Assembly (NCBI GenBank): GCA_964016885.1
Contig: OZ024740.1
Location: 138,446,001 to 138,510,000 of the forward strand
Source of the DNA: Eledone cirrhosa
Lineage: Eukaryota
Length of the DNA: 64,000 nt
Reading direction: 5' to 3'
Below, piece after piece: positions 12,001 to 40,184 of the stretch (position 1 is its first letter; each line of letters starts with the position of its first letter). Both the position numbers and the translations under genes were made by a program. The notes beneath the pieces were generated by a model that saw only the letters and a program-made list of their open reading frames with translations, was not told the DNA's origin and searched no databases.

Positions 12001-15000
12001 TTTTCCCTCAATCTCCAATTCTCTCTTTCTCTTATCACTTTTCCCCCAATATCCAATTCTCTCATTCTCTTATCACTTTTCTCTCAATCTCCAATTCTCT
12101 CTTTCTCTTATCACTTTTCCCTCAATCTCCAATTCTCTCTTTCTCTTATCACTTTTCTCTCAATCTCCAATTCTCTCTTTCTCTTATCACTTTTCTCTCA
12201 ATCTCCAATTCTCTCTTTCTCTTATCACTTTTCTCTCAATCTCCAATTCTCTCTTCTCTTATCACTTTTCTCTCAATATCCAATTCTCTCTCTCTCTTAT
12301 CACTTTTCTCTCAATCTCCAATTCTCTCTCTCTCTTATCACTTTTCCCCAATCTCCAATTCTCTCTCTTATCACTTTTCCCCCAATCTCCAATTCTCTCT
12401 TTCTCTTATCACTTTTCTCTCAATCTCCAATTCTCTCTCTCTCTTATCACTTTTCCCCCAATCTCCAATTCTCTCTTTCTCTTATCACTTTTCTCTCAAT
12501 CTCCAATTCTCTCTCTCTCTCTTATCACTTTTCCCCCAATCTCCAATTCTCTCTTTCTCTCATCACTTTTCTCTCAATCTCCAATTCTCTCTTTCTCTTA
12601 TCACTTTTCTCTCAATCTCCAATTCTCACTGTTTCTTATCACTTTTCTCTCAATCTCCAATTCTCTCTTTCTCTTATCACTTTGCTCTCAATCTCCAATT
12701 CTCTCTTTCTCTTATCACTTTTCTCTCAATCTCCAATTCTCTCTCTCTCTTATCACTTTTCCCCCAATCTCCAATTCTCTCTCTCTCTTATCACTTTTCT
12801 CTCAATCTCCAATTCTCTCTTTCTCTTATCACTTTTCTCTCAATCTCCAATTCTCTCTTTCTCTTATCACTTTTCTCTCAATCTCCAATTCTCTCTGTTT
12901 CTTATCACTTTTCTCTCAATCTCCAATTCTCTCTTTCTCTTGTCACTTTTCTCTCAATCTCCAATTCTCTCTTTCTCTTATCACTTTTCTCTCAATCTCC
13001 AATTCTCTCTTTCTCTTATCACTTTTCTCTCAATCTCCAATTCTCTCTCTCTCTTATCACTTTTCTCTCAATCTCCAATTCTCTCTTTCTCTTATCATTT
13101 TCACCCCAATCTCCAATTCTCTCTCTCTCTTATCACTTTTCCCCCAATTTCCAATTCTCTCTTTCTCTTATCCCTTTTCTCTCAATCTCCAATTCACTCT
13201 TTCTCTTATCACTTTTCTCTCAATCTCCAATTCTCTCTTTCTCTTATCACTTTTCTCTCAATCTCCAATTCTCTCTTTCTCTTATCACTTTTCTCTCAAT
13301 CTCCAATTCTCTCTTTCTCTTATCACTTTTCCCCCAATCTCCAATTCTCTCTCTCTCTTATCACTTTTCCCCCAATCTCCAATTCTCTCATTCTCTTATC
13401 ACTTTTCTCTCACTCTCCAATTCTCTCTTTCTCTTATCACTTTTCTCTCAATCTCCAATTCTCTCTTTCTCTTATCACTTTTCTCTCAATCTCCAATTCT
13501 CTCTTTCTCTTATCATTTTCCCCCTAATCTCCAATTCTCTCTCTCTCTTATCACTTTTCCCCCAATCTCCAATTCTCTCTTTCTCTTATCACTTTTCTCT
13601 CAATCTCCAATTCTCTCTTTCTCTTATCACTTTTCTCTCAATCTCCAATTCTCTCTTTCTCTTATCACTTTTCTCTCAATCTCCAATTCTCTCTTTCTCT
13701 TATCACTTTTCTCTCAATCTCCAATTCTCTCTCTCTCTTATCACTTTTCTCTCAATCTCCAATTCTCTCTCTCTCTTATCACTTTTCTCTCAATCTCCAA
13801 TTCTCTCTCTCTCTTATCACCTTTCCCCCAATCTCCAATTCTCTCTCTCTCTTATCACTTTTCTCTCAATCTCCAATTCTCTCTTTCTCTTATCACTTTT
13901 CTCTCAATCTCCAATTCTCTCTTTCTCTTATCACTTTTCTCTCAATCTCCAATTCTCTCTTTCTCTTATCATTTTCCCCCCAATCTCCAATTCTCTCTCT
14001 CTCTTATCACTTTTCCCCCAATCTCCAATTCTCTCTTTCTCTTATCACTTTTCTCTCAATCTCCAATTCTCTCTCTCTCTTATCACTTTTCCCCCAATCT
14101 CCAATTCTCTCTTTCTCTTATCACTTTTCTCTTAATCTCCAATTCTCTCTTTCTCTTATCACTTTTCTCTCAATCTCCAATTCTCTCTTTCTCTTATCAC
14201 TTTTCTCTCAATCTCCAATTCTCTCTTTCTCTTATCACTTTTCTCTCAATCTCCAATTCTCTCTCTCTCTTATCACTTTTCCCACAATCTCCAATTCTCT
14301 CTCTCTCTTATCACTTTTCCCCCAATCTCCAATTCTCTCTTTCTCTTATCACTTTTCTCTCAATCTCCAAATCTCTCTTTCTCTTATCACTTTTCCCCCA
14401 ATCTCCAATCCTCTCTTTCTCTTATCACTTTTCTCTCAATCTCCAATTCTCTCTTTCTCTTATCATTTTTCCCTCAATCTCCAATTCTCTCTTTCTCTTA
14501 TCACTTTTCTCTCAATCTCCAATTCTCTCTTTCTCTTATCACTTTTCTCTCAATCTCCAATTCTCTCTTTCTCTTATCACTTTTCTCTCAATCTCCTATT
14601 CTCTCTTTCTCTTATCACTTTTCTCTCAATCTCCAATTCTCTCTTTCTCTTATCACTTTTCTCTCAATCTCCAATTCTCTCTTTCTCTTATCACTTTTCT
14701 CTCAATCTCCAATTCTCTCATTCTCTTATCACTTTTCCCCCAATCTCCAATTCTCTCTCTCTCTTATCACTTTTCCCCCAATCTCCAATTCTCTCTTTCT
14801 CTTATCACTTTTCTCTCAATCTCCAATTCTCTCTATCTCTTATCACTTTTCTCTCAATATCCAATTCTCTCTTTCTCTTATCACTTTTCTCTCAATCTCC
14901 AATTCTCTCTTTCTCTTATCACTTTTCCCCCCAATCTCCAATTCTCTCTCTCTCTTATCACTTTTCCCCCAAACTCCAATTCTCTCTTTCTCTTATCACT

Positions 15001-18000
15001 TTTCCCCCAATCTCCAATTCTCTCTTTCTCTTATCACTTTTCTCTCAATCTCCAATTCTCTCTTTCTCTTATCACTTTACCCCCAATCTCCAATTCTCTC
15101 TCTCTCTCTCTTATCACTTTCCCCCAATCTCCAATTATCTCATTCTCTTACCACTTTTCTCTCACTCTCCAATTCTCTCTTTCTCTTATCACTTTTCTCT
15201 CAATCTCCAATTCTCTCTTTCTCTTATCACTTTTCTCTCAATCTCCAATTCTCTCTTTCTCTTATCACTTTTCTCTCAATCTCCAATTCTCTCTTTCTCT
15301 TATCATTTTCCCCCCAATCTCCAATTCTCTCTCTCTCTTATCACTTTTCCCCCAATCTCCAATTCTCTCTTTCTCTTATCACTTTTCTCTCAATCTCCAA
15401 TTCTCTCTTTCTCTTATCACTTTTCTCTCAATCTCCAATTCACTCTCTCTCTTATCACTTTTCCCGCAATCTCCAATTCTCTCTCTCTCTTATCACTTTT
15501 CTCTCAATCTCCAATTCTCTCTCTCTCTTATCACTTTTCCCCCAATCTCCAATACTCTCTTTCAATTATCACTTTTCTCTCAATCTCCAATTCTCTCTTT
15601 CTCTTATCACTTTTCTCTCAATCTCCAATTCTCTCTTTCTCTTATCACTTTTCTCTCAATCTCCAATTCTCTCTTTCTCTTATCACTTTTCTCTCAATCT
15701 CCAATTCTCTCTTTCTCTTATCACTTTTCTCTCAATCTCCAATTCTCTCTTTCTCTTATCACTTTTCCCCCAATCTCCAATTCTCTCTCTCTCTTATCAC
15801 TTTTCCCCAATCTCCAATTCTCTCATTCTCTTATCACTTTTCTGTCACTCTCCAATTCTCTCTTTCTCTTATCACTTTTCTCTCAATCTCCAATTCTCTC
15901 TTTCTCTTATCACTTTTCTCTCAATCTCCAATTCTCTCTTTCTCTTATCACTTTTCTCTCAATCTCCAATTCTCTCTTTCTCTTATCATTTTCCCCCCAA
16001 TCTCCAATTCTCTCTCTCTCTTATCACTTTTCCCCCAATCTCCAATTCTCTCTTTCTCTTATCACTTTTCTCTCAATCTCCAATTCTCTCTTTCTCTTAT
16101 CACTTTTCTCTCAATCTCCAATTCTCTCTTTCTCTTATCACTTTTCTCTCAATCTCCAATTCTCTCTTTCTCTTATCACTTTTCTCTCAATCTCCAATTC
16201 TCTCTCTCTCTTATCACTTTTCTCTCAATCTCCAATTCTCTCTTTCTCTTATCACTTTTCTCTCAATCTCCAATTCTCTCTTTCTCTTATCACTTTTCCC
16301 CCAATCTCCAATTCTCTCTCTCTCTCTTATCACTTTTCCCCCAATCTCCAATTCTCTCATTCTCTTACCACTTTTCTCTCACTCTCCAATTCTCTCTTTC
16401 TCTTATCACTTTTCTCTCAATCTCCAATTCTCTCTTTCTCTTATCACTTTTCTCTCAATCTCCAATTCTCTCTTTCTCTTATCACTTTTCTCTCAATCTC
16501 CAATTCTCTCTTTCTCTTATCACTTTTCTCTCAATCTCCAATTCTCTCTTTCTCTTATCATTTTCCCCCCAATCTCCATTCTCTCTCTCTCTTATCACTT
16601 TTCCCCCAATCTCCAATTCTCTCTTTCTCTTATCACTTTCTCTCAATCTCCAATTCTCTCTTTCTCTTATCACTTTTCTCTCAATCTCCAATTCTCTCTT
16701 TCTCTTATCACTTTTCTCTCAATCTCCAATTCTCTCTTTCTCTTATCACTTTTCTCTCAATCTCCAATTCTCTCTTTCTCTTATCACTTTTCCCCCAATC
16801 TCCAATTCTCTCTCTCTCTTATCACTTTTCCCCAATACTCCAATTCTCTCATTCTCTTATCACTTTTCTCTCACTCTCCAATTCTCTCTTTCTCTTATCA
16901 CTTTTCTCTCAATCTCCAATTCTCTCTTTCTCTTATCACTTTTCTCTCAATCTCCAATTCTCTCTTTCTCTTATCACTTTTCTCTCAATCTCCAATTCTC
17001 TCTTTCTCTTATCATTTTCCCCCCAATCTCCAATTCTCTCTCTCTCTTATCACTTTTCCCCCAATCTCCAATACTCTCTTTCTCTTATCACTTTTCTCTC
17101 AATCTCCAATTCTCTCTTTCTCTTATCACTTTTCTCTCAATCTCCAATTCTCTCTTTCTCTTATCACTTTTCTCTCAATCTCCAATTCTCTCTTTCTCTT
17201 ATCACTTTTCTCTCAATCTCCAATTCTCTCTCTCTCTTATCACTTTTCCCCCAATCTCCATTCTCTCTCTCTCTTATCACTTTTCTCTCAATCTCCAATT
17301 CTCTCTCTCTCTTATCACTTTTCCCCCAATCTCCAATTCTCTCTTTCTCTTATCACTTTTCTCTCAATCTCCAATTCTCTCTCTCTCTTATCACTTTTCC
17401 CCCAATCTCCAATTCTCTCTCTCTCTTATCACTTTTCCCCCAATCTCCAATTCTCTCATTCTCTTATCACTTTTCTCTCACTCTCCAATTCTCTCTTTCT
17501 CTTATCACTTTTCTCTCAATCTCCAATTCTCTCTTTCTCTTATCACTTTCTCTCAATCTCCAATTCTCTCTTTCTCTTATCATTTTCCCCCTAATCTCCA
17601 ATTCTCTCTCTCTCTTATCACTTTTCCCCCAATCTCCAATTCTCTCTTTCTCTTATCACTTTTCTCTCAATCTCCAATTCTCTCTTTCTCTTATCACTTT
17701 TCTCTCAATCTCCAATTCTCTCTTTCTCTTATCACTTTTCTCTCAATCTCCAATTCTCTCTTTCTCTTATCACTTTCTCTCAATCTCCAATTCTCTCTCT
17801 CTCTTATCACTTTTCTCTCAATCTCCAATTCTCTCTCTCTCTTATCACTTTTCTCTCAATCTCCAATTCTCTCTCTCTCTTATCACCTTTCCCCCAATCT
17901 CCAATTCTCTCTCTCTCTTATCACTTTTCTCTCAATCTCCAATTCTCTCTTTCTCTTATCACTTTCTCTCAATCTCCAATTCTCTCTTTCTCTTATCACT

Positions 18001-19825
18001 TTTCTCTCAATCTCCAATTCTCTCTTTCTCTTATCATTTTCCCCCCAATCTCCAATTCTCTCTCTCTCTTATCACTTTTCCCCCAATCTCCAATTCTCTC
18101 TTTCTCTTATCACTTTTCTCTCAATCTCCAATTCTCTCTCTCTCTTATCACTTTTCCCCAATCTCCAATTCTCTCTTTCTCTTATCACTTTTCTCTTAAT
18201 CTCCAATTCTCTCTTTCTCTTATCACTTTTCTCTCAATCTCCAATTCTCTCTTTCTCTTATCACTTTTCTCTCAATCTCCAATTCTCTCTTTCTCTTATC
18301 ACTTTTCTCTCAATCTCCAATTCTCTCTCTCTCTTATCACTTTTCCCACAATCTCCAATTCTCTCTCTCTCTTATCACTTTTCCCCCAATCTCCAATTCT
18401 CTCTTTCTCTTATCACTTTTCTCTCAATCTCCAAATCTCTCTTTCTCTTATCACTTTTCCCCCAATCTCCAATCCTCTCTTTCTCTTATCACTTTTCTCT
18501 CAATCTCCAATTCTCTCTTTCTCTTATCATTTTTCCCTCAATCTCCAATTCTCTCTTTCTCTTATCACTTTTCTCTCAATCTCCAATTCTCTCTTCTCTT
18601 ATCACTTTTCTCTCAATCTCCAATTCTCTCTTTCTCTTATCACTTTTCTCTCAATCTCCTATTCTCTCTTTCTCTTATCACTTTTCTCTCAATCTCCAAT
18701 TCTCTCTTTCTCTTATCACTTTTCTCTCAATCTCCAATTCTCTCTTTCTCTTATCACTTTTCTCTCAATCTCCAATTCTCTCATCTCTTATCACTTTTCC
18801 CCCAATCTCCAATTCTCTCTCTCTCTTATCACTTTTCCCCCAATCTCCAATTCTCTCTTTCTCTTATCACTTTTCTCTCAATCTCCAATTCTCTCTATCT
18901 CTTATCACTTTTCTCTCAATATCCAATTCTCTCTTTCTCTTATCACTTTTCTCTCAATCTCCAATTCTCTCTTTCTCTTATCACTTTTCCCCCCAATCTC
19001 CAATTCTCTCTCTCTCTTTATCACTTTCCCCAAACTCCAATTCTCTCTTTCTTATCACTTTTCCCCCAATCTCCAATTCTCTCTTTCTCTTATCACTTTT
19101 CTCTCAATCTCCAATTCTCTCTTTCTCTTATCACTTTACCCCCAATCTCCAATTCTCTCTCTCTCTCTCTTATCACTTTCCCCCAATCTCCAATTATCTC
19201 ATTCTCTTACCACTTTTCTCTCACTCTCCAATTCTCTCTTCTCTTATCACTTTTCTCTCAATCTCCAATTCTCTCTTTCTCTTATCACTTTTCTCTCAAT
19301 CTCCAATTCTCTCTTTCTCTTATCACTTTTCTCTCAATCTCCAATTCTCTCTTTCTCTTATCATTTTCCCCCAATCTCCAATTCTCTCTCTCTCTTATCA
19401 CTTTTCCCCCAATCTCCAATTCTCTCTTTCTCTTATCACTTTTCTCTCAATCTCCAATTCTCTCTTTCTCTTATCACTTTTCTCTCAATCTCCAATTCAC
19501 TCTCTCTCTTATCACTTTTCCCGCAATCTCCAATTCTCTCTCTCTCTTATCACTTTTCTCTCATCTCCAATTCTCTCTCTCTCTTATCACTTTTCCCCAA
19601 TCTCCAATACTCTCTTTCAATTTATCACTTTCTCTCATCTCCAATTCTCTCTTTCTCTTATCACTTTTCTCTCAATCTCCAATTCTCTCTTTCTCTTATC
19701 ACTTTTCTCTCAATCTCCAATTCTCTCTTCTCTTATCACTTTTCTCTCAATCTCCAATTCTCTCTTTCTCTTATCACTTTTCTCTCAGTGCTCCAGATTT
19801 CTCTCTTTCTCTTTATCACTTTTCC
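1..19825 (+). repeat. 38-bp satellite array (satellite A), block 1
   Basis: Monomer ATCTCCAATTCTCTCTTTCTCTTATCACTTTTCTCTCA repeats every 38 nt (units start at 1, 39, ...). Common variants are TTTTCCCCCAA vs TTTTCTCTCAA and TCTCTCTCT vs TCTTTCTCT. The + strand is almost G-free. Indels increase towards the gap. Confidence 0.98.
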
Positions 19826-20025
19826 NNNNNNNNNNNNNNNNNNNNNNNNNNNNNNNNNNNNNNNNNNNNNNNNNNNNNNNNNNNNNNNNNNNNNNNNNNN
19901 NNNNNNNNNNNNNNNNNNNNNNNNNNNNNNNNNNNNNNNNNNNNNNNNNNNNNNNNNNNNNNNNNNNNNNNNNNNNNNNNNNNNNNNNNNNNNNNNNNNN
20001 NNNNNNNNNNNNNNNNNNNNNNNNN
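19826..20025. other. Assembly gap (200 N)
   Basis: Run of 200 N; the round number suggests a scaffolding placeholder of unknown true size. Confidence 0.99.
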
Positions 20026-21060
20026 GAGAATTGGATATTGAGAGAAAAGTGATAAGAGAAAGAGAGAATTGGAGATTGAGAGAAAAGTGATAAGAGAAAG
20101 AGAGAATTGGAGATTGGGGGAAAAGTGATAAGAGAGAGAGAGAATTGGAGATTGGGGGGAAAAGTGATAAGAGAATGAGAGAATTGGAGATTGAGAGAAA
20201 AGTGATAAGAGAAAGAGAGAATTGGAGTTTGAGAGAAAAGTGATAAGAGAAAGAGAGAATTGGAGATTGAGAGAAAAGTGATAAGAGAAAGAGAGAATTG
20301 GAGATTGAGAGAAAAGTGATAAGAGAAAGAGAGAATTGGAGATTGAGGGAAAAAGTGATAAGAGAAAGAGAGAATTGGAGATTGAGAGAAAAGTGATAAG
20401 AGAAAGAGAGAATTGGAGATTGGGGGAAAAGTGATAAGAGAAAGAGAGATTTGGAGATTGAGAGAAAAGTGATAAGTGAAAGAGAGAATTGGAGATTGGG
20501 GGAAAAGTGATAAGAGAGAGAGAGAATTGGAGATTGGGGGAAAAGTGATAAGAGAGAGAGAGAATTGGAGATTGAGAGAAAAGTGATAAGAGAAAGAGAG
20601 AATTGGAGATTGGGGGAAAAGTGATAAGAGAGAGAGAGAATTGGAGATTGAGAGAAAAGTGATAAGAGAGAGAGAGAATTGAGATTGGGGGGAAAAGTGA
20701 TAAGAGAAAGAGAGAATTGGAGATTGAGAGAAAAGTGATAAGAGAAAGAGAGAATTGGAGATTGAGAGAAAAGTGATAAGAGAAAGAGAGAATTGGAGAT
20801 TGAGAGAAAAGTGATAAGAAGACAGAGAGAATTGGAGATTGAGAGAAAAGTGATAAGAGAAAGAGAGAATTGGAGATTGAGAGAAAAGTGATAAGAGAGA
20901 AGAGAGAAGTTGGAGATTGAGAGAAAAGTGATAAGAGAAAGAGAGAATTGGAGATTGAGAGAAAAGTGATAGAGAAGAGAGAGAATTGGAGATGTGGGAA
21001 AAGTGATAAGAGAGAGAGAGAATTGGAGATTGGGAGGAAAAGTGATAGAGAGAGAGAGTC
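20026..21060 (-). repeat. Satellite A in inverted orientation (mirror copy of ~32,640-33,673)
   Basis: GAGAATTGGAGATTGAGAGAAAAGTGATAAGAGAAAGA is the reverse complement of the monomer. Rare variants at ~20,033, 20,171, 20,225 and 20,471 match variants at ~33,660, 33,521, 33,471 and 33,221 in mirror order. Confidence 0.93.
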
Positions 21061-21159
21061 AATTTGGCCCCTGAGCACCTCTAGAGAAAGAGTGAATTGG
21101 AGATTGAGATGCAAAGTCTTCTTAGAGAATTGTCTAGTCACAGCTCCCTCTCTTCCAAT

Positions 21160-24100
21160 TCTCAGATCTCTGCCCCTATCACCTCTCCCTCTCTCCAATG
21201 TCGCAGATTCTCCCTATCACCTCTCCTCTCTCCAAGTGTTCTCAATCGCTCCCCTATCACCTCTCCCTCTCTGCCAATTCTCAATCTCTCTCCCTATCAC
21301 CTCTCCCTCGCTCCAATTCAAATTTTCCCCTATCACCTCTCTCTCTCTCCAATTCTCAGATGTTTCCCCGATCACCTCTCTCTCTCCAAGTCTCAATCTC
21401 TCCCCTATCACCTCTCCCTCTCTCCAATTCTCAATGTTCCCCTTCACCGCTCTCTCTCTCCAATTCTCAATCTCTCGCCCTATCACCTCTCCGCTCTCTC
21501 CAATTCTCAATTTTCCCCTATCACCACTCTCGCTCTCCAATTCTCAATTTTCCCCTATCACCTCTCTCTTTCTCTCCAATTCTCAATCTCTCCCCTATCA
21601 CCTCTCTCTCTCTCCAATTAACAATCTCTCCCCTATCACCTCTCCCTCTCTCCAATTCTCAATCTCTCCCCTATCACCTCTCCCTCTCTCCAATTCTCAA
21701 TCTCTCCCCTATCACCTCTCCCTCTCTCCAATTCTCAATCTCTCCCCTATCACCTCTCCCTCTCTCCAATTCTCAATCTTTCCCCTATCACCTCTCCCTC
21801 TCTCCAATTCTCAATCTCTCCCCTATCACCTCTCCCTCTCTCCAATTCTCAATTCTTCCCCTATCACCTCTCCCTCTCTCAAATTCTCAATCTCTCCCCT
21901 ATCACCTCTCCCTCTCTCCAATTCTCAATTTTTCCCCTATCACCTCTCTCTCTCTCCAATCTCAATTTTTCCCCTATCACCTCTCTCTCTCTCCAATTCT
22001 CTATCTCTCCCCTATCACCTCTCCCTCTCTCCAATTCGTCAATCTTTCCCCCATCACCTCTCCCTCTCTCCAATTCTCAATCTCTCCCCCATCACCTCTC
22101 CCTCTCTCCAATTCTCAATTTTTCCCCTATCACCTCTCTCTCTCTCCAACTCTCAATTTTTCCCCTGATCACCTCTCTCTCTCTCCAATTCTCAATCTCT
22201 CCCCTATCACCTCTCCCTCTCTCCAATTCTCAATCTTTCCCCCATCACCTCTCCCTCTCTCCAATTCTCAATTCTCTCCCCTATCACCTCTCCCTCTCTC
22301 CAATTCTCAATCTCTCCCCTATCACCTCTCCCTCTCTCCAATTCTCAATCTCTCCCCTATCACCTCTCCCTCTCTCCAATTCTCAATCTTTCCCCTATCA
22401 CCTCTCCCTCTCTCCAATTCTCAATCTCTCCCCTATCACCTCTCCCTCTCTCCAATTCTCAATTTTTCCCCTATCACCTCTCCCTCTCTCAAATTTCTCA
22501 ATCTCTCCCCTATTACCTCTCCCTCTCTCCAATTCTCAATTTTTCCCCTATCACCTCTCTCTCTCTCCAATTCTCAATTTATCCCCTATCACCTCTCTCT
22601 CTCTCCAATTCTCAATCTCTCCCCTATCACCTCTCTCTCTCTCCAATTCTCAATCTCTCCCCTATCACCTCTCCCTCTCTCCAATTCTCAATCTCTCCCC
22701 TATCACCTCTCCCTCTCTCCAATTCTCAATTTTTCCCCTATCACCTCTCTCTCTCTCCAATTCTAAATTTTTCCCCTATCACCTCTCCCTCTCTCCAATT
22801 CTCAATCTCTCCCCTATCACCTCTCCCTATTCTCCAATTCACAATTTTTCCCCTATCACCTCTCTCTCTCTCCAATTCTCAATTTTTTTCCCCTATCACC
22901 TCTCCCTCGCTCCAATTCTCAATCTCTCCCCTATCACCTCTCCCTCTCTCCAATTCACAATCTCTCCCCTATCACCTCTCCCTCTCTCCAATTCTCAATC
23001 TCTCCCCTATCACCTCTCCCTCTCTCCAATTCTCAATTTTTCCCCTATCACCTCTCTCTCTCTCCAATTCTCAATTTTTCCCCTATCACCCCTCCCTCTC
23101 TCCAATTCTCAATCTCTCCCCTATCACCTCTCCCTCTCTCCAATTCTCAATCTCTCCCCTATCACCTCTCCCTCTCTCCAATTCTCAATCTCTCCCCTAT
23201 CACCTCTCCCTCTCTCCAATTCTCAATCTCTCCCCTATCACCTCTCCCTCTCTCCAATTCTCAATCTCTCCCCTATCACCTCTCCCTCTCTCCAATTCTC
23301 AATCTCTCCCCTATCACCTCTCCCTCTCTCCAATTCTCAATTTGTCCCCTATCACCTCTCTCTCTCTCCAATTCTCAATTTTTCCCCTATCACCTCTCTC
23401 TCTCTCCAATTCTCAATCTCTCCCCTATCACCTCTCCCTCTCTCCAATTCTCAATTTTTCCCCTATCACCTCTCTCTCTCTCCAATTCTCAATCTCTCCC
23501 CTATCACCTCTCTCTCTCTCCAATTCTCAATTTTTCCCCTATCACCTCTCTCTCTCTCCAATTCTCAATCTCTCCCCTATCACCTCTCCCTCTCTCCAAT
23601 TCTCAATTTTTCCCCTATCACCTCTCTCTCTCTCCAATTCTCAATCTCTCCCCTATCACCTCTCTCTCTCTCCAATTCTCAATTTTCCCCTATCACCTCT
23701 CTCTCTCTCCAATTCTCAATCTCTCCCCTATCACCTCTCCCTCTCTCCAATTCTCAATCTCTCCCCTATCACCTCTCCCTCTCTCCAATTCTCAATCTCT
23801 CCCCTATCACCTCTCCCTCTCTCCAATTCTCAATCTCTCCCCTATCACCTCTCCCTCTCTCCAATTCTCAATTTTTCCCCTATCACCTCTCTCTCTCTCC
23901 AATTCTCAATTTTTTCCCCATCACCTCTCCCTCTCTCCAATTCTCAATCTCTCCCCTATCACCTCTCCCTCTCTCCAATTCTCAATCTCTCCCCTATCAC
24001 CTCTCCCTCTCTCCAATTCTCAATCTCTCCCCTATCACCTCTCCCTCTCTCCAATTCTCTATCTCTCCCCTATCACCTCTCCATCTCTCCAATTCTCAAT

Positions 24101-26836
24101 TTTTCCCCTATCACCTCTCTCTCTCTCTCCAATTCTCAATTTTTCCCCTATCACCTCTCCCTCTCTCCAATTCTCAATCTCTCCCCTATCACCTCTCCCT
24201 CTCTCCAATTTCTCAATTTTTCCCCTATCACCTCTCCCTCTCTCCAATTCTCAATTCTTCCCCTATCACCTCTCCCTCTCTCAAATTCTCAATCTCTCCC
24301 CTATCACCTCTCCCTCTCTCCAATTCTCAATTTTTCCCCTATCACCTCTCTCTCTCTCCAATTCTCAATTTTTCCCCTATCACCTCTCTCTCTCTCCAAT
24401 TCTCAATCTCTCCCCTATCACCTCTCCCTCTCTCCAATTCTCAATCTTTCCCCCATCACCTCTCCCTCTCTCCAATTCTCAATCTCTCCCCCATCACCTC
24501 TCCCTCTCTCCAATTCTCAATTTTTCCCCTATCACCTCTCTCTCTCTCCAACTCTCAATTTTTCCCCTATCACCTCTCTTCTCTCTCCAATTCTCAATCT
24601 CTCCCCTATCACCTCTCCCTCTCTCCAATTCTCAATCTTTCCCCCATCACCTCTCCCTCTCTCCAATTCTCAATCTCTCCCCTATCACCTCTCCCTCTCT
24701 CCAATTCTCAATCTCTCCCCTATCACCTCTCCCTCTCTCCAATTCTCAATCTCTCCCCTATCACCTCTCCCTCTCTCCAATTCTCAATCTTTCCCCTATC
24801 ACCTCTCCCTCTCTCCAATTCTCAATCTCTCCCCTATCACCTCTCCCTCTCTCCAATTCTCAATTTTTCCCCTATCACCTCTCCCTCTCTCAAATTCTCA
24901 ATCTCTCCCCTATTACCTCTCCCTCTCTCCAATTCTCAATTTTTCCCCTATCACCTCTCTCTCTCTCCAATTCTCAATTTATCCCCTATCACCTCTCTCT
25001 CTCTCCAATTCTCAATCTCTCCCCTATCACCTCTCTCTCTCTCCAATTCTCAATCTCTCCCCTATCACCTCTCCCTCTCTCCAATTCTCAATCTCTCCCC
25101 TATCACCTCTCCCTCTCTCCAATTCTCAATTTTCCCCTATCACCTCTCTCTCTCTCCAATTCTAAATTTTTCCCCTATCACCTCTCCCTCTCTCCAATTC
25201 TCAATCTCTCCCCTATCACCTCTCCCTATCTCCAATTCACAATTTTTCCCCTATCACCTCTCTCTCTCTCCAATTCTCAATTTTTTTCCCCTATCACCTC
25301 TCCCTCTCTCCAATTCTCAATCTCTCCCCTATCACCTCTCCCTCTCTCCAATTCACAATCTCTCCCCTATCACCTCTCCCTTCTCTCCAATTCTCAATCT
25401 CTCCCCTATCACCTCTCCCTCTCTCCAATTCTCAATTTTTCCCCTATCACCTCTCTCTCTCTCCAATTCTCAATTTTTCCCCTATCACCCCTCCCTCTCT
25501 CCAATTCTCAATCTCTCCCCTATCACCTCTCCCTCTCTCCAATTCTCAATCTCTCCCCTATCACCTCTCCCTCTCTCCAATTCTCAATCTCTCCCCTATC
25601 ACCTCTCCCTCTCTCCAATTCTCAATCTCTCCCCTATCACCTCTCCCTCTCTCCAATTCTCAATCTCTCCCCTATCACCTCTCCCTCTCTCCAATTCTCA
25701 ATCTCTCCCCTATCACCTCTCCCTCTCTCCAATTCTCAATTTTTCCCCTATCACCTCTCTCTCTCTCCAATTTCTCAATTTTTCCCCTATCACCTCTCTC
25801 TCTCTCCAATTCTCAATCTCTCCCCTATCACCTCTCCCTCTCTCCAATTCTCAATTTTTCCCCTATCACCTCTCTCTCTCTCCAATTCTCAATCTCTCCC
25901 CTATCACCTCTCTCTCTCTCCAATTCTCAATTTTGCCCCTATCACCTCTCTCTCTCTCCAATTCTCAATCTCTCCCCTATCACCTCTCCCTCTCTCCAAT
26001 TCTCAATTTTTCCCCTATCACCTCTCTCTCTCTCCAATTCTCAATCTCTCCCCTATCACCTCTCTCTCTCTCCAATTCTCAATTTTTCCCCTATCACCTC
26101 TCTCTCTCTCCAATTCTCAATCTCTCCCCTATCACCTCTCCCTCTCTCCAATTCTCAATCTCTCCCCTATCACCTCTCCCTCTCTCCAATTCTCAATCTC
26201 TCCCCTATCACCTCTCCCTCTCTCCAATTCTCAATCTCTCCCCTATCACCTCTCCCTCTCTCCAATTCTCAATTTTTCCCCTATCACCTCTCTCTCTCTC
26301 CAATTCTCAATTTTTTCCCCATCACCTCTCCCTCTCTCCAATTCTCAATCTCTCCCCTATCACCTCTCCCTCTCTCCAATTCTCAATCTCTCCCCTATCA
26401 CCTCTCCCTCTCTCCAATTCTCAATCTCTCCCCTATCACCTCTCCCTCTCTCCAATTCTCTATCTCTCCCCTATCACCTCTCCATCTCTCCAATTCTCAA
26501 TTTTTCCCCTATCACCTCTCTCTCTCTCTCCAATTCTCAATTTTTCCCCTATCACCTCTCCCTCTCTCCAATTCTCAATCTCTCCCCTATCACCTCTCCC
26601 TCTCTCCAATTCTCAATTTTTCCCCTATCACCTCTCCCTCTCTCCAATTCTAATTTTTCCCCTATCACCTCTCTCTCTCTCCAATTCTCAATGTTTTCCC
26701 CTATCACCTCTCCCTCTCTCCAATTCTCAATTCTCTCCCCTATCACCTCTCCCTCTCTCCAATTCACAATCTCTCCCCTATCACCTCTCCCTCTCTCCAA
26801 TTCTCAATCTCTCCCCTATCACCTCTCCCTCTCTCC
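21160..26836. repeat. Apparent second 38-bp satellite (B) = letter-substituted reverse complement of satellite A; probable base-calling artefact
   Basis: Unit TCTCCAATTCTC-AATCTCTCCCC-TATCAC-CTCTCCCTC equals revcomp(A) GAGAATTGGAGA-TTGAGAGAAAA-GTGATA-AGAGAAAGA under G>T, A>C, T>A at all 38 positions. Noisy transition at ~21,040-21,600. Confidence 0.9.
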
Positions 26837-26890
26837 ACCACTCACCTCCTCCCCCCCCCCCCCCTTCTTTCTTCTTCCCCTACATCTACA
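26837..26890 (+). other. Probable PacBio SMRTbell hairpin adapter, letter-substituted
   Basis: Observed C14 (26,851-26,864), TTCTTTCTTCTT, CCCC. The adapter ATCTCTCTC-AACAACAACAAC-GGAGGAGGAGG-AAAA-GAGAGAGAT under G>T,T>A,A>C,C>C gives CACACACAC-C12-TTCTTCTTCTT-CCCC-TCTCTCTCA. It lies at the centre of the mirror symmetry; the flanks match only loosely. Confidence 0.8.
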
Positions 26891-27960
26891 CTCTACAACA
26901 CACTAACACATACACCCAAAACACACCCACACCCCAACACACAAACACAACACCCAAAACACACCCACACCCCAACACACAAACACAACACCCAAAACAC
27001 ACCCACACCCCAACACACAAACACAACACCCAAAACCCCCCCCACACCCCAACACACACACACAACACCCAAAACCCCCCCCCACCCCAACACACAAACA
27101 CAACACCCAAAACCCCCCACACCCCAACACACAAACACAACACCCAAAACACACCCACACCCCAACACACAAACACAACACCCAAAACCCCCCACACCCC
27201 AACACACACTCACAACACCCAAAACCCCCCACACCCCAACACACCAACACAACACCCAAAACACACCCACACCCCAACACACAAACACAACACCCAAAAC
27301 ACACCACACCCAAACACACAATCACAACACCCAAAACACACCACACCCCAACACACAAACACAACACCCAAAACACACCCACACCCCAACACACAAACAC
27401 TACACCAAAACCCCCCCACACCCCATCACACACACACAACACCCAAAACCCCCCACTCCCCAACACTCAACTCACACCCAAATCACACCCACACCCAACA
27501 CTCCAACACAACTCCCAAAACCACCCACACCCATACACACAAACACAACACCCATAACACACCCACACCCCTTCACACTAACACAACACCCAAAACACAC
27601 CCACTCCCATCACTCACACACAACTCCCAATACCCCCACACCCCATCTCACTCACACAACACCTTATCACACAATCTCCCAATCACACTCACTCACAACA
27701 CTCTAACACTCCCACACCCCAACACACTAACACTACACCCAATACTCTCAACTCCCAATCTCACTCACTCTACTCCCTAATACCCCCCAACTCCCATCTC
27801 ACACACTCATCTCACTATACACTCCAATCTCCCTACTCTCTCACTCATCACCCATTTCCCCCACACTCCATTCTCTCAACTCTACTCTCTATACTCTCCA
27901 CTCCATCACTCTCTCTCAACACCTATCCCCCCACTCCTCACTCTCACTCTTACACACTAT
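26891..27960. repeat. Apparent A/C-only 38-bp repeat (C) = letter-substituted forward satellite A, grading back into A
   Basis: Unit ACACAAACAC-AACACCCAAA-ACACACCCAC-ACCCCAAC equals TCTCTTTCTC-TTATCACTTT-TCTCTCAATC-TCCAATTC under T>A, A>C, C>C. T reappears progressively from ~27,450 to ~28,100. Confidence 0.88.
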
Positions 27961-30900
27961 TCCCCCAAATCTCCAATTCTCTCTTTCTCTTATCACTTCT
28001 CAATCTCCAATCTCACTTTCTCTTATCACTTTCTCTCAATCTCCAATTCTCTCTCTTCTCTATCACTTTCTCTCAATCTCCAATTCTCTCTTCTCTTATC
28101 ACTATTCTCTCAATCTCCAATTCTCTCTTTCTCTTATCACTTTTCTCTCAATCTCCAATTCTCTCTTTCTCTTATCACTTTTCTCTCAATCTCCAATTCT
28201 CTCTTTCTGTTATCACTTTTCCCCAATCTCCAATTCTCTCTCTCTCTTATCACTTTTCCCCCAATCTCCAATTCTCTCTTTCTCTTATCACTTTTCTCTC
28301 AATCTCCAATTCTCTCTTTCTCTTATCACTTTTCTCTCAATATCCAATTCTCTCTTTCTCTTATCACTTTTCTCTCAATCTCCAATTCTCTCTTTCTCTT
28401 ATCACTTTTCCCCCCCAATCTCCAATTCTCTCTCTCTCTTATCACTTTTCCCCCAATATCCAATTCTCACTTTCTCTTATCACTTTTCTCTCAATCTCCA
28501 ATTCTCTCTTTCTCTTATCACTTTTCCCCCAAACTCCAATTCTCTCTCTCTCTTATCACTTTTCCCCCAATCTCCAATTCTCTCTTTCTCTTATCACTTT
28601 TCTCTCAATCTCCAATTCTCTCTTTCTCTTATCACTTTTCTCTCAATCTCCAATTCTCTCTCTCTCTTATCACTTTTCTCTCAATCTCCAATTCTCTCTC
28701 TCTCTTATCACTTTTCACCCAATCTCCAATTCTCTCTCTCTCTTATCACTTTTCCCCCAATCTCCAATTCTCTCTTTCTCTTACCACTTTTCTCTCAATC
28801 TCCAAATCTCTCTTTCTCTTATCACTTTGCCCCCAATCTCCAATTCTCTCTTTCTCTTATCACTTTTCTCTCAATCTCCAATTCTCTCTTTCTCTTATCA
28901 CTTTTCCCTCAATCTCCAATTCTCTCTTTCTCTTATCACTTTTCTCTCAATCTCCAATTCTCTCTTTCTCTTATCACTTTTCTCTCAATCTCCAATTCTC
29001 TCTTTCTCTTATCACTTTTCTCTCAATCTCCAATTCTCTCTTTCTCTTATCATTTTTCCCTCAATCTCCAATTCTCTCTTTCTCTTATCACTTTTCTCTC
29101 AATCTCCAATTCTCTCTCTCTCTTATCACTTTTCCCCAATCTCGAATTCTCTCTCTCTCTTATCACTTTTCCCCCAATCTCCAATTCTCTCTTTCTCTTA
29201 TCAGTTTTCTCTCAATCTCCAATTCTCTCTTTCTCTTATCATTTTTCCCTCAATCTCCAATTCTCTCTTTCTCTTATCACTTTTCTCTCAATCTCCAATT
29301 CTCTCTCTCTCTTATCACTTTTCCCCCAATCTCCAATTCTCTCTCTCTCTTATCACTTTTCCCCCAATCTCCAATTCTCTCTTTCTCTTATCACTTTTCT
29401 CTCAATCTCCAAATCTCTCTTTCTCGTATCACTTTTCCGCCAATCTCCAATTCTCTCTTTCTCTTATCACTTTTCCCCCAATCTCCAATTCTCTCTTTCT
29501 CTTATCACTTTTCTCTCAATCTCCAATTCTCTCTTTCTCTTATCACTTTTCCCCAATCTCCAATTCTCTCTCTCTCTCTTATCACTTTTCCCCCAATCTC
29601 CATTCTCTCATTCTCTTATCACTTTTCTCTCACTCTCCAATTCTCTCTTTCTCTTATCACTTTTCTCTCAATCTCCAATTCTCTCTTTCTCTTATCACTT
29701 TTCTCTCAATCTCCAATTCTCTCTTTCTCTTATCACTTTTCTCTCAATCTCCAATTCTCTCTTTCTCTTATCATTTTCCCCCCAATCTCCAATTCTCTCT
29801 CTCTCTTATCACTTTTCCCCAATCTCCAATTCTCTCTTTCTCTTATCACTTTTCTCTCAATCTCCAATTCTCTCTTTCTCTTATCACTTTTCTCTCAATC
29901 TCCAATTCTCTCTTTCTCTTATCACTTTTCTCTCAATCTCCAATTCTCTCTTTCTCTTATCACTTTTCTCTCAATCTCCAATTCTCTCTCTCTCTTATCA
30001 CTTTTCCCCCAATCTCCAATTCTCTCTCTCTCTTATCACTTTTCTCTCAATCTCCAATTCTCTCTCTCTCTTATCACTTTTCCCCCAATCTCCAATTCTC
30101 TCTTTCTCTTATCACTTTTCTCTCAATCTCCAATTCTCTCTCTCTCTTATCACTTTTCCCCCAATCTCCAATTCTCTCTCTCTCTTATCACTTTTCTCTC
30201 AATCTCCAATTCTCTCTCTCTCTTATCACTTTTCCCCAATCTCCAATTCTCTCTTTCTCTTATCACTTTTCTCTCAATCTCCAATTCTCTCTCTCTCTTA
30301 TCACTTTTCCCCCAATCTCCAATTCTCTCTCTCTCTTATCACTTTTCCCCCAATCTCCAATTCTCTCTTTCTCTTATCACTTTTCTCTCAATCTCCAATT
30401 CTCTCTTTCTCTTATCACTTTTCTCTCAATCTCCAATTCTCTCTTTCTCTTATCACTTTTCTCTCAATCTCCAATTCTCTCTTTCTCTTATCACTTTTCT
30501 CTCAATCTCCAATTCTCTCTTTCTCTTATCACTTTTCTCTCAATCTCCAATTCTCTCTTTCTCTTATCACTTTTCTCTCAATCTCCAATTCTCTCTTTCT
30601 GTTATCACTTTTCCCCCAATCTCCAATTCTCTCTCTCTCTTATCACTTTTCCCCCAATCTCCAATTCTCTCTTTCTCTTATCACTTTTCTCTCAATCTCC
30701 AATTCTCTCTTTCTCTTATCACTTTTCTCTCAATATCCAATTCTCTCTTTCTCTTATCACTTTTCTCTCAATCTCCAATTCTCTCTTTCTCTTATCACTT
30801 TTCCCCCCCAATCTCCAATTCTCTCTCTCTCTTATCACTTTTCCCCCAATATCCAATTCTCACTTTCTCTTATCACTTTTCTCTCAATCTCCAATTCTCT

Positions 30901-33900
30901 CTTTCTCTTATCACTTTTCCCCCAAACTCCAATTCTCTCTCTCTCTTATCACTTTTCCCCAATCTCCAATTCTCTCTTTCTCTTATCACTTTTCTCTCAA
31001 TCTCCAATTCTCTCTTTCTCTTATCACTTTTCTCTCAATCTCCAATTCTCTCTCTCTCTTATCACTTTTCTCTCAATCTCCAATTCTCTCTCTCTCTTAT
31101 CACTTTTCACCCAATCTCCAATTCTCTCTCTCTCTTATCACTTTTCCCCCAATCTCCAATTCTCTCTTTCTCTTACCACTTTTCTCTCAATCTCCAAATC
31201 TCTCTTTCTCTTATCACTTTGCCCCCAATCTCCAATTCTCTCTTTCTCTTATCACTTTTCTCTCAATCTCCAATTCTCTCTTTCTCTTATCACTTTTCCC
31301 TCAATCTCCAATTCTCTCTTTCTCTTATCACTTTTCTCTCAATCTCCAATTCTCTCTTTCTCTTATCACTTTTCTCTCAATCTCCAATTCTCTCTTTCTC
31401 TTATCACTTTTCTCTCAATCTCCAATTCTCTCTTTCTCTTATCATTTTTCCCTCAATCTCCAATTCTCTCTTTCTCTTATCACTTTTCTCTCAATCTCCA
31501 ATTCTCTCTCTCTCTTATCACTTTTCCCCCAATCTCGAATTCTCTCTCTCTCTTATCACTTTTCCCCCAATCTCCAATTCTCTCTTTCTCTTATCAGTTT
31601 TCTCTCAATCTCCAATTCTCTCTTTCTCTTATCATTTTTCCCTCAATCTCCAATTCTCTCTTTCTCTTATCACTTTTCTCTCAATCTCCAATTCTCTCTC
31701 TCTCTTATCACTTTTCCCCCAATCTCCAATTCTCTCTCTCTCTTATCACTTTTCCCCCAATCTCCAATTCTCTCTTTCTCTTATCACTTTTCTCTCAATC
31801 TCCAAATCTCTCTTTCTCGTATCACTTTTCCGCCAATCTCCAATTCTCTCTTTCTCTTATCACTTTTCTCTCAATCTCCAATTCTCTCTTTCTCTTATCA
31901 CTTTTCCCTCAATCTCCAATTCTCTCTTTCTCTTATCACTTTTCTCTCAATCTCCAATTCTCTCTTTCTCTTATCACTTTTCTCTCAATCTCCAATTCTC
32001 TCTTTCTCTTATCACTTTTCTCTCAATCTCCAATTCTCTCTTTCTCTTATCACTTTTCTCTCAATAACCAATTCTCTCTCTCTCTTATCACTTTTCTCTC
32101 AATCTCCAATTCTCTCCCTCTCTCTTATCACTTTTCCCCCAATCTCCAATTCTCTCTCTCTATTATCACTTTTCCCCAATCTCCAATTCTCTCTTTCTCT
32201 TATCACTTTTCTCTCAATCTCCAATTCTCTCTCTCTCTTATCACTTTTCCCCCAATCTCCAATTCTCTCTTTCTCTTATCACTTTTCTCTCAATCTCCAA
32301 TTCTCTCTCTCTCTTATCACTTTTCCCCCAATCTCCAATTCTCTCTCTCTCTTATCACTTTTCCCCCAAACTCCAATTCTCTCTTTCTCTTATCACTTTT
32401 CTCTCAATCTCCAATTCTCTCTTTCTCTTATCACTTTTCTCTCAATCTCCAATTCTCTCTTTCTCTTATCACTTTTCTCTCAATCTCCAATTCTCTCTTT
32501 CTCTTATCACTTTTCTCTCAATCTCCAATTCACTCTTTCTCTTATCACTTTTCTCTCAATCTCCAATTCTCTCTCTCTCTTATCACTTTTCCCCCAATCT
32601 CCAATTCTCTCTCTCTCTTATCACTTTTCCCCCAATCTTCAATTCTCTCTGTTTCTTATCCCTTTTCTCTCAATCTCCAATTCTCTCTTTCTCTTATCAT
32701 TTTTCTCTCAATCTCCAATTCTCTCTGTTTCTTATCACTTTTCTCTCAATCTCCAATTCTCTCTTTCTCTTATCACTTTTCCCCCAATCTCCAATTCTCT
32801 CTTTCTCTTATCACTTTTCTCTCAATCTCCAATTCTCTCTTTCTCTTATCACTTTTCTCTCAATCTCCAATTCTCTCTGTTTCTTATCACTTTTCTCTCA
32901 ATCTCCAATTCTCTCTTTCTCTTATCACTTTTCTCTCAATCTCCAATTCTCTCTTTCTCTTATCACTTTTCTCTCAATCTCCAATTCTCTCTTTCTCTTA
33001 TCATTTTCCCCCCAATCTCCAATTCTCTCTCTCTCTTATCACTTTTCTCTCAATCTCCAATTCTCTCTCTCTCTTATCACTTTTCCCCCAATCTCCAATT
33101 CTCTCTTTCTCTTATCACTTTTCTCTCAATCTCCAATTCTCTCTCTCTCTTATCACTTTTCCCCCAATCTCCAATTCTCTCTCTCTCTTATCACTTTTCC
33201 CCCAATCTCCAATTCTCTCTTTCACTTATCACTTTTCTCTCAATCTCCAAATCTCTCTTTCTCTTATCACTTTTCCCCCAATCTCCAATTCTCTCTTTCT
33301 CTTATCACTTTTCTCTCAATCTCCAATTCTCTCTTTCTCTTATCATTTTTCCCTCAATCTCCAATTCTCTCTTTCTCTTATCACTTTTCTCTCAATCTCC
33401 AATTCTCTCTTTCTCTTATCACTTTTCTCTCAATCTCCAATTCTCTCTTTCTCTTATCACTTTTCTCTCAAACTCCAATTCTCTCTTTCTCTTATCACTT
33501 TTCTCTCAATCTCCAATTCTCTCATTCTCTTATCACTTTTCCCCCAATCTCCAATTCTCTCTCTCTCTTATCACTTTTCCCCCAATCTCCAATTCTCTCT
33601 TTCTCTTATCACTTTTCTCTCAATCTCCAATTCTCTCTTTCTCTTATCACTTTTCTCTCAATATCCAATTCTCTCTTTCTCTTATCACTTTTCTCTCAAT
33701 CTCCAATTCTCTCTTTCTCTTATCACTTTTCCCCCAATCTCCAATTCTCTCTCTCTCTTATCACTTTTCCCCCAAACTCCAATTCTCTCTTTCTCTTATC
33801 ACTTTTCCCCCAATCTCCAATTCTCTCTTTCTCTTATCACTTTTCTCTCAATCTCCAATTCTCTCTTTCTCTTATCACTTTTCCCCCAATCTCCAATTCT

Positions 33901-36900
33901 CTCTCTCTCTCTTATCACTTTTCCCCCAATCTCCAATTCTCTCATTCTCTTATCACTTTTCTCTCACTCTCCAATTCTCTCTTTCTCTTATCACTTTTCT
34001 CTCAATCTCCAATTCTCTCTTTCTCTTATCACTTTTCTCTCAATCTCCAATTCTCTCTTTCTCTTATCACTTTTCTCTCAATCTCCAATTCTCTCTTTCT
34101 CTTATCATTTTCCCCCCAATCTCCAATTCTCTCTCTCTCTTATCACTTTTCCCCCAATCTCCAATTCTCTCTTTCTCTTATCACTTTTCTCTCAATCTCC
34201 AATTCTCTCTTTCTCTTATCACTTTTCTCTCAATCTCCAATTCTCTCTTTCTCTTATCACTTTTCTCTCAATCTCCAATTCTCTCTTTCTCTTATCACTT
34301 TTCTCTCAATCTCCAATTCTCTCTCTCTCTTATCACTTTTCCCCCAATCTCCAATTCTCTCTCTCTCTTATCACTTTTCTCTCAATCTCCAATTCTCTCT
34401 CTCTCTTATCACTTTTCCCCCAATCTCCAATTCTCTCTTTCTCTTATCACTTTTCTCTCAATCTCCAATTCTCTCTCTCTCTTATCACTTTTCCCCCAAT
34501 CTCCAATTCTCTCTCTCTCTTATCACTTTTCTCTCAATCTCCAATTCTCTCTCTCTCTTATCACTTTTCCCCCAATCTCCAATTCTCTCTTTCTCTTATC
34601 ACTTTTCTCTCAATCTCCAATTCTCTCTCTCTCTTATCACTTTTCCCCCAATCTCCAATTCTCTCTCTCTCTTATCACTTTTCCCCCAATCTCCAATTCT
34701 CTCTTTCTCTTATCACTTTTCTCTCAATCTCCAATTCTCTCTTTCTCTTATCACTTTTCTCTCAATCTCCAATTCTCTCTTTCTCTTATCACTTTTCTCT
34801 CAATCTCCAATTCTCTCTTTCTCTTATCACTTTTCTCTCAATCTCCAATTCTCTCTTTCTCTTATCACTTTTCTCTCAATCTCCAATTCTCTCTTTCTCT
34901 TATCACTTTTCTCTCAATCTCCAATTCTCTCTTTCTCTTATCACTTTTCCCCCAATCTCCAATTCTCTCTCTCTCTTATCACTTTTCCCCCAATCTCCAA
35001 TTCTCTCTTTCTCTTATCACTTTTCTCTCAATCTCCAATTCTCTCTTTCTCTTATCACTTTTCTCTCAATATCCAATTCTCTCTTTCTCTTATCACTTTT
35101 CTCTCAATCTCCAATTCTCTCTTTCTCTTATCACTTTTCCCCCCAATCTCCAATTCTCTCTCTCTCTTATCACTTTTCCCCCAATATCCAATTCTCACTT
35201 TCTCTTATCACTTTTCTCTCAATCTCCAATTCTCTCTCTCTCTTATCACTTTTCCCCCAAACTCCAATTCTCTCTCTCTCTTATCACTTTTCCCCCAATC
35301 TCCAATTCTCTCTTTCTCTTATCACTTTTCTCTCAATCTCCAATTCTCTCTTTCTCTTATCACTTTTCTCTCAATATCCAATTCTCTCTCTCTCTTATCA
35401 CTTTTCTCTCAATCTCCAATTCTCTCTCTCTCTTATCACTTTTCGCCCAATCTCCAATTCTCTCTCTCTCTTATCACTTTTCCCGCAATCTCCAATTCTC
35501 TCTTTCTCTTACCACTTTTCTCTCAATCTCCAAATCTCTCTTTCTCTTATCACTTTCCCCCCAATCTCCAATTCTCTCTTTCTCTTATCACTTTTCTCTC
35601 AATCTCCAATTCTCTCTTTCTCTTATCACTTTTCCCTCAATCTCCAATTCTCTCTTTCTCTTATCACTTTTCTCTCAATCTCCAATTCTCTCTTTCTTTT
35701 ATCACTTTTCTCTCAATAACCAATTCTCTCTCTCTCTTATCACTTTTCTCTCAATCTCCAATTCTCTCCCTCTCTCTTATCACTTTTCCCCCAATCTCCA
35801 ATTCTCTCTCTCTATTATCACTTTTCCCCCAATCTCCAATTCTCTCTTTCTCTTATCACTTTTCTCTCAATCTCCAATTCTCTCTCTCTCTTATCACTTT
35901 TCCCCCAATCTCCAATTCTCTCTTTCTCTTATCACTTTTCTCTCAATCTCCAATTCTCTCTCTCTCTTATCACTTTTCCCCCAATCTCCAATTCTCTCTC
36001 TCTCTTATCACTTTTCCCCCAAACTCCAATTCTCTCTTTCTCTTATCACTTTTCTCTCAATCTCCAAATCTCTCTTTCTCTTATCACTTTTCCCCCAATC
36101 TCCAATTCTCTCTTTCTCTTATCACTTTTCTCTCAATCTCCAATTCTCTCTTTCTCTTATCATTTTTCCCTCAATCTCCAATTCTCTCTTTCTCTTATCA
36201 CTTTTCTCTCAATCTCCAATTCTCTCTTTCTCTTATCACTTTTCTCTCAATCTCCAATTCTCTCTTTCTCTTATCACTTTTCTCTCAATCTCCAATTCTC
36301 TCTTTCTCTTATCACTTTTCTCTCAATATCCAATTCTCTCTCTCTCTTATCACTTTTCTCTCAATCTCCAATTCTCTCTCTCTCTTATCACTTTTCCCCC
36401 AATCTCCAATTCTCTCTCTCTCTTATCACTTTTCCCCCAATCTTCAATTCTCTCTGTTTCTTATCCCTTTTCTCTCAATCTCCAATTCTCTCTTTCTCTT
36501 ATCATTTTTCTCTCAATCTCCAATTCTCTCTGTTTCTTATCACTTTTCTCTCAATCTCCAATTCTGTCTTTCTCTTATCACTTTTCCCCCAATCTCCAAT
36601 TCTCTCTTTCTCTTATCACTTTTCTCTCAATCTCCAATTCTCTCTTTCTCTTATCACTTTTCTCTCAATCTCCAATTCTCTCTGTTTCTTATCACTTTTC
36701 TCTCAATCTCCAATTCTCTCTTTCTCTTATCACTTTTCTCTCAATCTCCAATTCTCTCTTTCTCTTATCACTTTTCTCTCAATCTCCAATTCTCTCTCTC
36801 TCTTATCACTTTTCCCCCAATCTCCAATTCTCTCTCTCTCATATCACTTTTCTCTCAATCTTCAATTCTCTCTGTTTCTTATCCCTTTTCTCTCAATCTC

Positions 36901-37109
36901 CAATTCTCTCTTTCTCTTATCATTTTTCTCTCAATCTCCAATTCTCTCTGTTTCTTATCACTTTTCTCTCAATCTCCAATTCTCTCTTTCTCTTATCACT
37001 TTTCTCTCAATCTCCAATTCTCTCTTTCTCTTATCACTTTTCTCTCAATCTCCAATTCTCTCTTTCTCTTATCACTTTTCTCTCAATTTCCAACTCTCTC
37101 TTTCTCTTA
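27961..37109 (+). repeat. 38-bp satellite array (satellite A), block 2
   Basis: Same monomer and orientation as block 1. Internal ~2,392-bp duplication (TTTGCCCCC at ~28,827 and ~31,219; TACCAC at 28,782 and 31,174). Ends abruptly at ...TTTCTCTTA 37,109. Confidence 0.97.
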
Positions 37110-39126: not shown

Positions 39127-39180
39127 ACACACACACACACACATACACACACACATATATTTATATATATGCATATATAT

Positions 39181-39234
<54 letters not shown>

Positions 39235-39317
39235 ACACACACATATATATATATGCATATATATAAACACACACAAACATATATATATATATGCATATAT
39301 ATAAACACACACACACA

Positions 39318-39370
<53 letters not shown>

Positions 39371-39380
39371 GCGTATATAT
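39127..39380. repeat. Compound (CA)n/(TA)n microsatellite
   Basis: (CA)n tracts separated by a repeated ATATATATGCATATATATAAA spacer. Confidence 0.95.
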
Positions 39381-39892: not shown

Positions 39893-40105
39893 TATATCCT
39901 AATTGTATATCAACGCTATAGGATCCGCAACTCCAGTCCAAATTACAAGTTTATTTCTAAAATATCTCGTGATATTTTCGTGATGTTAGACCATATATTT
40001 CTATATTTTTATATTTCTACACATATGCCCATTATTAATCTAACTACTACTAAAAGAACCGAAAGGCGAACAAACCGACTCGTAACTTTGATTAAATATT
40101 CTACG

Positions 40106-40184
<79 letters not shown>

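Follow-up and report, generated by a model that had tools for sequence, protein, structure and literature searches.

Organisation of the locus

A satellite region with a 38-bp unit fills positions 1-37109 of the window, by which we mean the whole 64,000-nt stretch of Eledone cirrhosa DNA that was analysed, and unique eukaryotic DNA lies beyond it. The region holds satellite A, two apparent relatives termed B and C, a short motif that separates B from C, and a scaffold gap (Table 1). Satellite A is nearly G-free on the plus strand, and its minus strand is hence nearly C-free. Units of B and C are found on the plus strand only and are absent from the rest of the window. The final part of the A array before the gap (19480-19825) is noisier than the remainder, with stray G and insertions, and resembles the end of a read. 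The arrays flanking the gap have 68% of their 60-mers in common and only 24% of their 150-mers.

The unique flank is dense in AC, TA, TG and CT microsatellites at 39127-51839. A LINE-like non-LTR retrotransposon lies at 60478-63695 on the minus strand, in several frames, with an endonuclease (PF03372), a reverse transcriptase (PF00078) and a zf-RVT domain (PF13966). Upstream of the end of this LINE, on the plus strand of 56300-59699, three reading frames run without a stop for 392, 175 and 155 aa, and none of them matches Pfam. A search of Rfam gave 0 matches.

Table 1. Features of the satellite region and of the junction within it, in order along the window
Feature	Position	Strand	Remarks
Satellite A array, 38-bp unit	1-19825	+	25 G in 19825 bases; taken as real DNA
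Scaffold gap of 200 N	19826-20025	.
Left arm: A in reverse complement, correctly called	20026-21050	+	Mirrors about 33673-32650; 1 C in 1025 bases
Onset zone	21051-21500	+	G, T and A shift jointly at 21050-21150; noisy until about 21500
Presumed phantom satellite B, reverse complement of A under G>T, T>A, A>C	21501-26837	+	38/38
Degraded first stem of the hairpin adapter (putative)	26838-26850	+	13 nt against 9; global alignment, poor match
Loop of the SMRTbell adapter with shifted letters, read orientation (nearly certain)	26851-26881	+	29/30 columns; loop common to L001-L003
Degraded second stem of the adapter (putative)	26882-26895	+	Global alignment, poor match
Presumed phantom satellite C, satellite A under T>A, A>C	26896-27400	+	38/38; mirrors the final 500 nt of B
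Recovery zone	27401-28000	+	Gradual comeback of native T and A
Right arm, correctly called satellite A	28001-33673	+	33673 mirrors 20026
Remaining satellite A array, to unique sequence	33674-37109	+	Outside the mirror

A single letter map relates satellites A, B and C

All 256 letter maps were scored for two conversions, that of the reverse-complemented A unit to the B unit and that of the A unit itself to the C unit. The map A>C, C>C, G>T, T>A alone gave 38/38 for B and 38/38 for C, and the runner-up reached a joint score of 63/76. The original prediction had applied a mapping derived from the satellites, and this cipher is borne out. B was also considered as a direct map of A, with no reverse complementation, and this was rejected (best 27/38). 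The map was derived from the satellites, independently of the adapter sequence discussed below.

The map forms a one-step chain, G>T>A>C, in which C stays fixed. Past position 21600 it is followed in B by T>A at 650/663 positions, A>C at 1901/1911, G>T at 1492/1495 and C>C at 12/12, leaving an error of about 1%. The residual errors are either native letters (24) or T>C (2), and no others were seen. G, T and A flip jointly at 21050-21150, about 1 kb past the start of the contig, and the recovery of native letters across 27400-28000 is gradual.

A letter-shifted adapter loop at the switch from B to C

The motif that the original prediction had reported at the switch from B to C is present at 26851-26881 and consists of C14 (26851-26864), TTCTTTCTTCTT (26865-26876), CCCC (26877-26880) and T (26881). 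Its C14 is the sole run of at least 10 C on the plus strand of 1-37200, and TTCTTCTT occurs once on that strand, within the motif. The 45-nt PacBio adapter sequence was taken from the available part of Sim et al. 2022 (PMC8864876), and its reverse complement was passed through the letter map and aligned to the window. The mapped adapter matched 26852-26881 in 29/30 columns with a score of 54, against a best score elsewhere of 31 in 3194 tiles on both strands, and of 26 in 920 satellite tiles. A score of 54 was reached by 2/20000 letter-shuffled adapters, 0/5000 dinucleotide-shuffled adapters and 0/5000 dinucleotide-shuffled junctions, and the proposal that a transformed adapter aligns here thus withstood comparison with shuffled sequence. 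Read orientation scored 54 against 22 for oligo orientation; in the accessible text of PMC8864876, 89.6% of leftover adapters were reverse-complemented relative to the oligo. Among 512 pairs of map and orientation, the top four all carry A>C, C>C and G>T in read orientation, and T alone varies.

The clean match is limited to the loop and one stem letter. The stems are noisy and are 13 and 15 nt long, against 9 and 9 in the adapter (global score 40/90). The mirror arms of B and C stop at 26837 and resume at 26896, which leaves an insert of 58 nt against an adapter of 45 nt. When the full adapter was scored, a map with T unchanged reached 58 against 45 for the satellite-derived map. As the matched loop has no T, the adapter tests A>C and G>T, both of which it bears out, and has no bearing on T>A. 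The proposed transformed adapter is thus supported for the loop and for these two changes, while its stems are not cleanly present.

A plain adapter scored at best 27 anywhere in the window, and a down-shifted adapter at best 30. A VecScreen-like screen, run at the BLAST settings printed in PMC8864876, returned 0 hits in the window, and the adapter was indeed invisible to such a screen, as had been proposed. We conclude that 26851-26881 is almost certainly a miscalled adapter, the loop of a PacBio hairpin adapter whose letters were swapped and which centres a foldback. The adapter itself points to PacBio as the platform.

Geometry of the foldback

The two arms mirror each other in register, 20026-26837 against 33673-26896. 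Votes for the mirror centre were cast by 60-mers, separately for B and for the native piece, and both fell in the 26847 bin, B with 15.4% of votes (next 10.4%) and the native piece with 28.5% (next 4.2%). In the register centred on 26847, with native or shifted letters scored as acceptable, 20026-25700 and 33673-28003 agreed in 5616/5718 columns. The rare G variants of the right arm were seen as C on the left in 13/14 cases. The mirror register topped 158 right-arm and 240 left-array windows; it scored 2955, where the highest-ranking left-array window reached 2749. Next to the adapter, the final 500 nt of B and the first 500 nt of C agreed at 97% (488 matches, 5 mismatches and 10 gap letters), the best of 77 registers. 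The motif had been placed at the centre of a palindrome, and the arms of B and C do mirror each other outwards from 26837 and 26896 in their best register. Variants of B and C are those of A in mirror register, with no mutational history of their own.

The insert comprises 6778 nt and the excess sequence 6870 nt (20026-26895); without this excess, the arrays flanking the gap share one orientation. The foldback read likely begins directly past the gap. A mirror relation between the native tract 20026-21050 and the array on the left side of the gap was also tried and rejected, as no dominant centre emerged (top 13/451 votes). The unit variants of satellite A follow a higher-order pattern, in which secondary mirror votes about 1.2 kb off centre imply a period of about 2.4 kb. 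The orientation of the adapter makes the plus strand the read direction; followed that way, the shift sets in on the C-free strand and dies away on the C-rich one.

The shifted loop and satellite words in other data

The shifted loop was found in three metagenome contigs, L001, L002 and L003. In L002 it centres a plain foldback in DNA that is non-repetitive (1558 against a null maximum of 275), and A>C and G>T errors fade with distance from the adapter. L002 is like the present junction in carrying the same loop at a foldback centre together with A>C and G>T, and is unlike it in that T stays unchanged (79 against 59), the arms are noisy (84%), and the DNA is non-repetitive and uses four letters. 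L002 is independent evidence for the loop as a miscalled adapter; its occurrence in four-letter DNA means that a C-free template is not the sole trigger. The foldbacks of L001 and L003 did not exceed the null (47 against a maximum of 51, and 91 against 92). The shifted loop was found 0 times in genome and viral contig collections, and the plain adapter was likewise found 0 times in genome contigs, so that these collections provide no positive control.

Two further features of these contigs were observed. At 1100-1900 of L003, purine-only and pyrimidine-only blocks alternate around a half-miscalled adapter, as if calling had switched between two states. L001 is pyrimidine-rich overall (1-3028, A about 12%) and resembles a read miscalled from end to end that was retained among the metagenome contigs.

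Public sequencing runs were used to follow B and C beyond the assembly. Three runs of one sample (X1-X3), of unrecorded library type, contain 0.80-0.87 of the flank's words, and the assembly may itself have been built from them. All three include exact B and C pieces of 26768-26990. The summed depth of B peaks near 105, 535 and 2029 in X1-X3, which are of equal size, a range of about 20-fold, while a shared, unrelated background of AC repeats remains at about 1040-1270. For exact C pieces the depths are 9.75, 12.1 and 18.3, compared with about 5 copies in the window. We read these depths as several miscalled molecules per run; taken alone, real B and C would fit them equally. A fourth run (X4), an Illumina RAD-seq library of reduced representation that offers no satellite A control, gave 10 reads, all partial matches and none of them on 26768-26823. 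Among the pieces listed, none spans the junction in 4/4 runs, contigs being unable to show absence, and depth is 0 at 26888-26895 in 4/4 runs.

Proposed origin of the junction

The junction 20026-26895 is very likely a sequencing artefact and not DNA of the organism. In what we consider the probable course of events, the loop with swapped letters centres a foldback from one circular molecule, the adapter having been missed in every pass by a base caller that had slipped by one level of brightness. Recent PacBio instruments separate the four bases by signal level and refit the signal model while reading. The order of these signals we take to be G<T<A<C, and under the letter map each base would then climb precisely one rung of it, C being already at the top. 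The residual errors of B would likewise all fall on this ladder, if the assumed order holds. The order was not found in published papers; vendor documents and patents lay outside the scope of the search.

The following sequence of steps would account for the junction. A 6.8-kb satellite fragment would be read repeatedly around the circular molecule. On the strand without C the brightest label would be absent, and after about 1 kb the adaptive signal model would refit, so that C is called for A, A for T and T for G. The shifted state would persist through the adapter, which would go unrecognised, and both strands would be kept in one subread. On the return strand, true C pulses would restore the model within 0.5-1.1 kb, and the far adapter would be recognised. 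If each pass took the same course, the consensus would be an accurate-looking read of about 13.6 kb, which would be assembled at the contig end. About 6.9 kb of the assembly (20026-26895, 6870 nt) is likely to be false. Where a miscalled adapter separates a sequence from its reverse complement, the read is flagged by PacBio consensus software, and shifted arms would likely escape this check.

A multi-pass (HiFi) origin of the foldback read is highly probable; we base it on the agreement across the one-molecule junction (97%, against 84% in the arms of L002) and on the error of about 1% in B. That the slip along the ladder was triggered by the C-free template is nearly as probable. The brightness ladder as probable cause and the multi-pass reading are both additions to the original prediction, which gave no cause for the cipher. 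In a toy fit with assumed signal levels, a C-free strand had a second, near-equal optimum at scale 0.66 and a G-free strand a further optimum at 1.62, and ordinary DNA had one optimum only. The fit predicts a downward shift on a G-free strand, and no down-shifted adapter was seen in the window, a point against the ladder. With assumed values, this fit speaks for plausibility alone.

Several observations count against a slip of this kind. A map that leaves T as it is suits the stems better, and T>A is hence not demonstrated inside the adapter. L002 has A>C and G>T miscalls in four-letter DNA, and a C-free template is therefore unnecessary for such a miscall. If X1-X3 are short-read runs, the B and C words that they carry argue against an origin in PacBio alone. 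Finally, L001 and L003 have the loop and yet no foldback above the null.

A physical change of brightness in one well, independent of the absent C, would be in keeping with L002, where A>C and G>T miscalls peak near the adapter in four-letter DNA. We regard it as unlikely here. A shift of consensus quality requires recurrence at the same places in each pass, the onset comes about 1 kb into the C-free strand with fading on the C-rich strand, and B words recur across three runs. Marginally less likely again is a missed-adapter foldback in a long read from a single pass (CLR) that was then corrected or polished by means of other reads with similar miscalls, in place of a multi-pass consensus of one molecule. 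Material for such polishing appears to exist, several molecules per run seemingly holding B and C words, and the noise of the adapter stems and of both transition zones also speaks for it. However, the junction of B, adapter and C is the end of one molecule, and its two sides nonetheless agree at the level given above, well beyond the arms of L002; moreover, rare variants keep the mirror register, and polishing with reads from elsewhere in the array would be apt to blur it. A reading in which B and C are genuine sister satellites, with the motif a chance C/T-rich stretch, can draw on the exact B and C words in contigs of three public runs (of unrecorded library type), but it is very improbable, as no mutational process rewrites all A, G and T by a fixed map over 5 kb with rare variants in register, the adapter match exceeds chance and is orientation-specific, the depth of B ranges about 20-fold between runs of equal size from one sample, none of the pieces listed crosses the junction and 26888-26895 has depth 0 in 4/4 runs, and B and C units occur on the plus strand only and nowhere else in the window.

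Comparison with described artefacts

With a letter-shifted miscalled adapter at its centre, the case is a variant of the known missed-adapter foldback, and none like it was found described in the literature. Error type D of Sim et al. 2022 (PMC8864876), as set out in the available portion of that paper, combines a leftover PacBio blunt adapter with an inverted duplication in HiFi assemblies; the contigs concerned were assembled from unfiltered reads. The present junction is like these in that an adapter in read orientation is kept in the contig beside an inverted duplicate. It is unlike them in that, within the same portion, the adapter is plain and was caught at >=97% over 44/45 bases, whereas here the letter shift affects the loop and most of one arm, a screen at those BLAST settings gives 0 hits and the duplicate mimics a new satellite.

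Miscalled repeats are described for Nanopore, and not for PacBio, in the accessible parts of 10.1101/2022.01.11.475254, PMC12455769 and PMC11293586. As far as the available text goes, Nanopore repeat miscalls in telomeres and in simple satellites (Tan et al., 10.1101/2022.01.11.475254; 10.64898/2026.07.13.738322) are, as here, strand-specific, and phantom repeats enter assemblies. They are motif-specific and depend on the context of the pore signal, in contrast to the letter-for-letter map at the present junction, which also extends to the adapter and to rare variants and shows a lag in both onset and recovery, on what we infer to be PacBio. The 2026 preprint (10.64898/2026.07.13.738322) calls ONT 'uniquely prone' to such miscalling in the part of it available. 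HiFi reads of telomeres, whose G-strand is also C-free, are reported to be without miscalls of the Nanopore type, in the consulted sections of 10.1101/2022.01.11.475254, where the present map was not sought; this too counts against the slip proposed here.

HiFi dropout at purine-rich satellites has been described as a loss of reads attributed to triplex and hairpin DNA (PMC12758392; 10.64898/2026.07.13.738322), and the latter blames non-B DNA for HiFi bias at satellites, both in the available extracts. The likeness to our case lies in a failure of HiFi on satellites with purine/pyrimidine skew; the difference from dropout as those extracts present it is that here the read survived with wrong letters, and that the purine strand of satellite A also has T. 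The letter map A>C, C>C, G>T, T>A itself was not found described in the literature, a search from which vendor documents and patents were outside the scope.

Significance

The locus holds no new biology: both 'satellite families' are likely to be false, as is the inversion seemingly present at the gap. For assembly quality, it means that an adapter can pass a VecScreen-like filter while the read looks accurate. A wider claim, that PacBio calling slips one rung on any long C-free strand and so creates phantom satellites, foldbacks with invisible adapters in public HiFi assemblies and part of the HiFi dropout at purine-rich satellites that is put down to triplex DNA, is tentative, and we think it rather doubtful. 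If the cause were general, phantom families would be present in satellite catalogues based on HiFi reads, and strand-blind counting would, by the map, log one purine-only repeat as another purine-only repeat. Shifted adapters and shifted units would offer a cheap test of whether base calling, and not DNA structure by itself, contributes to this dropout.
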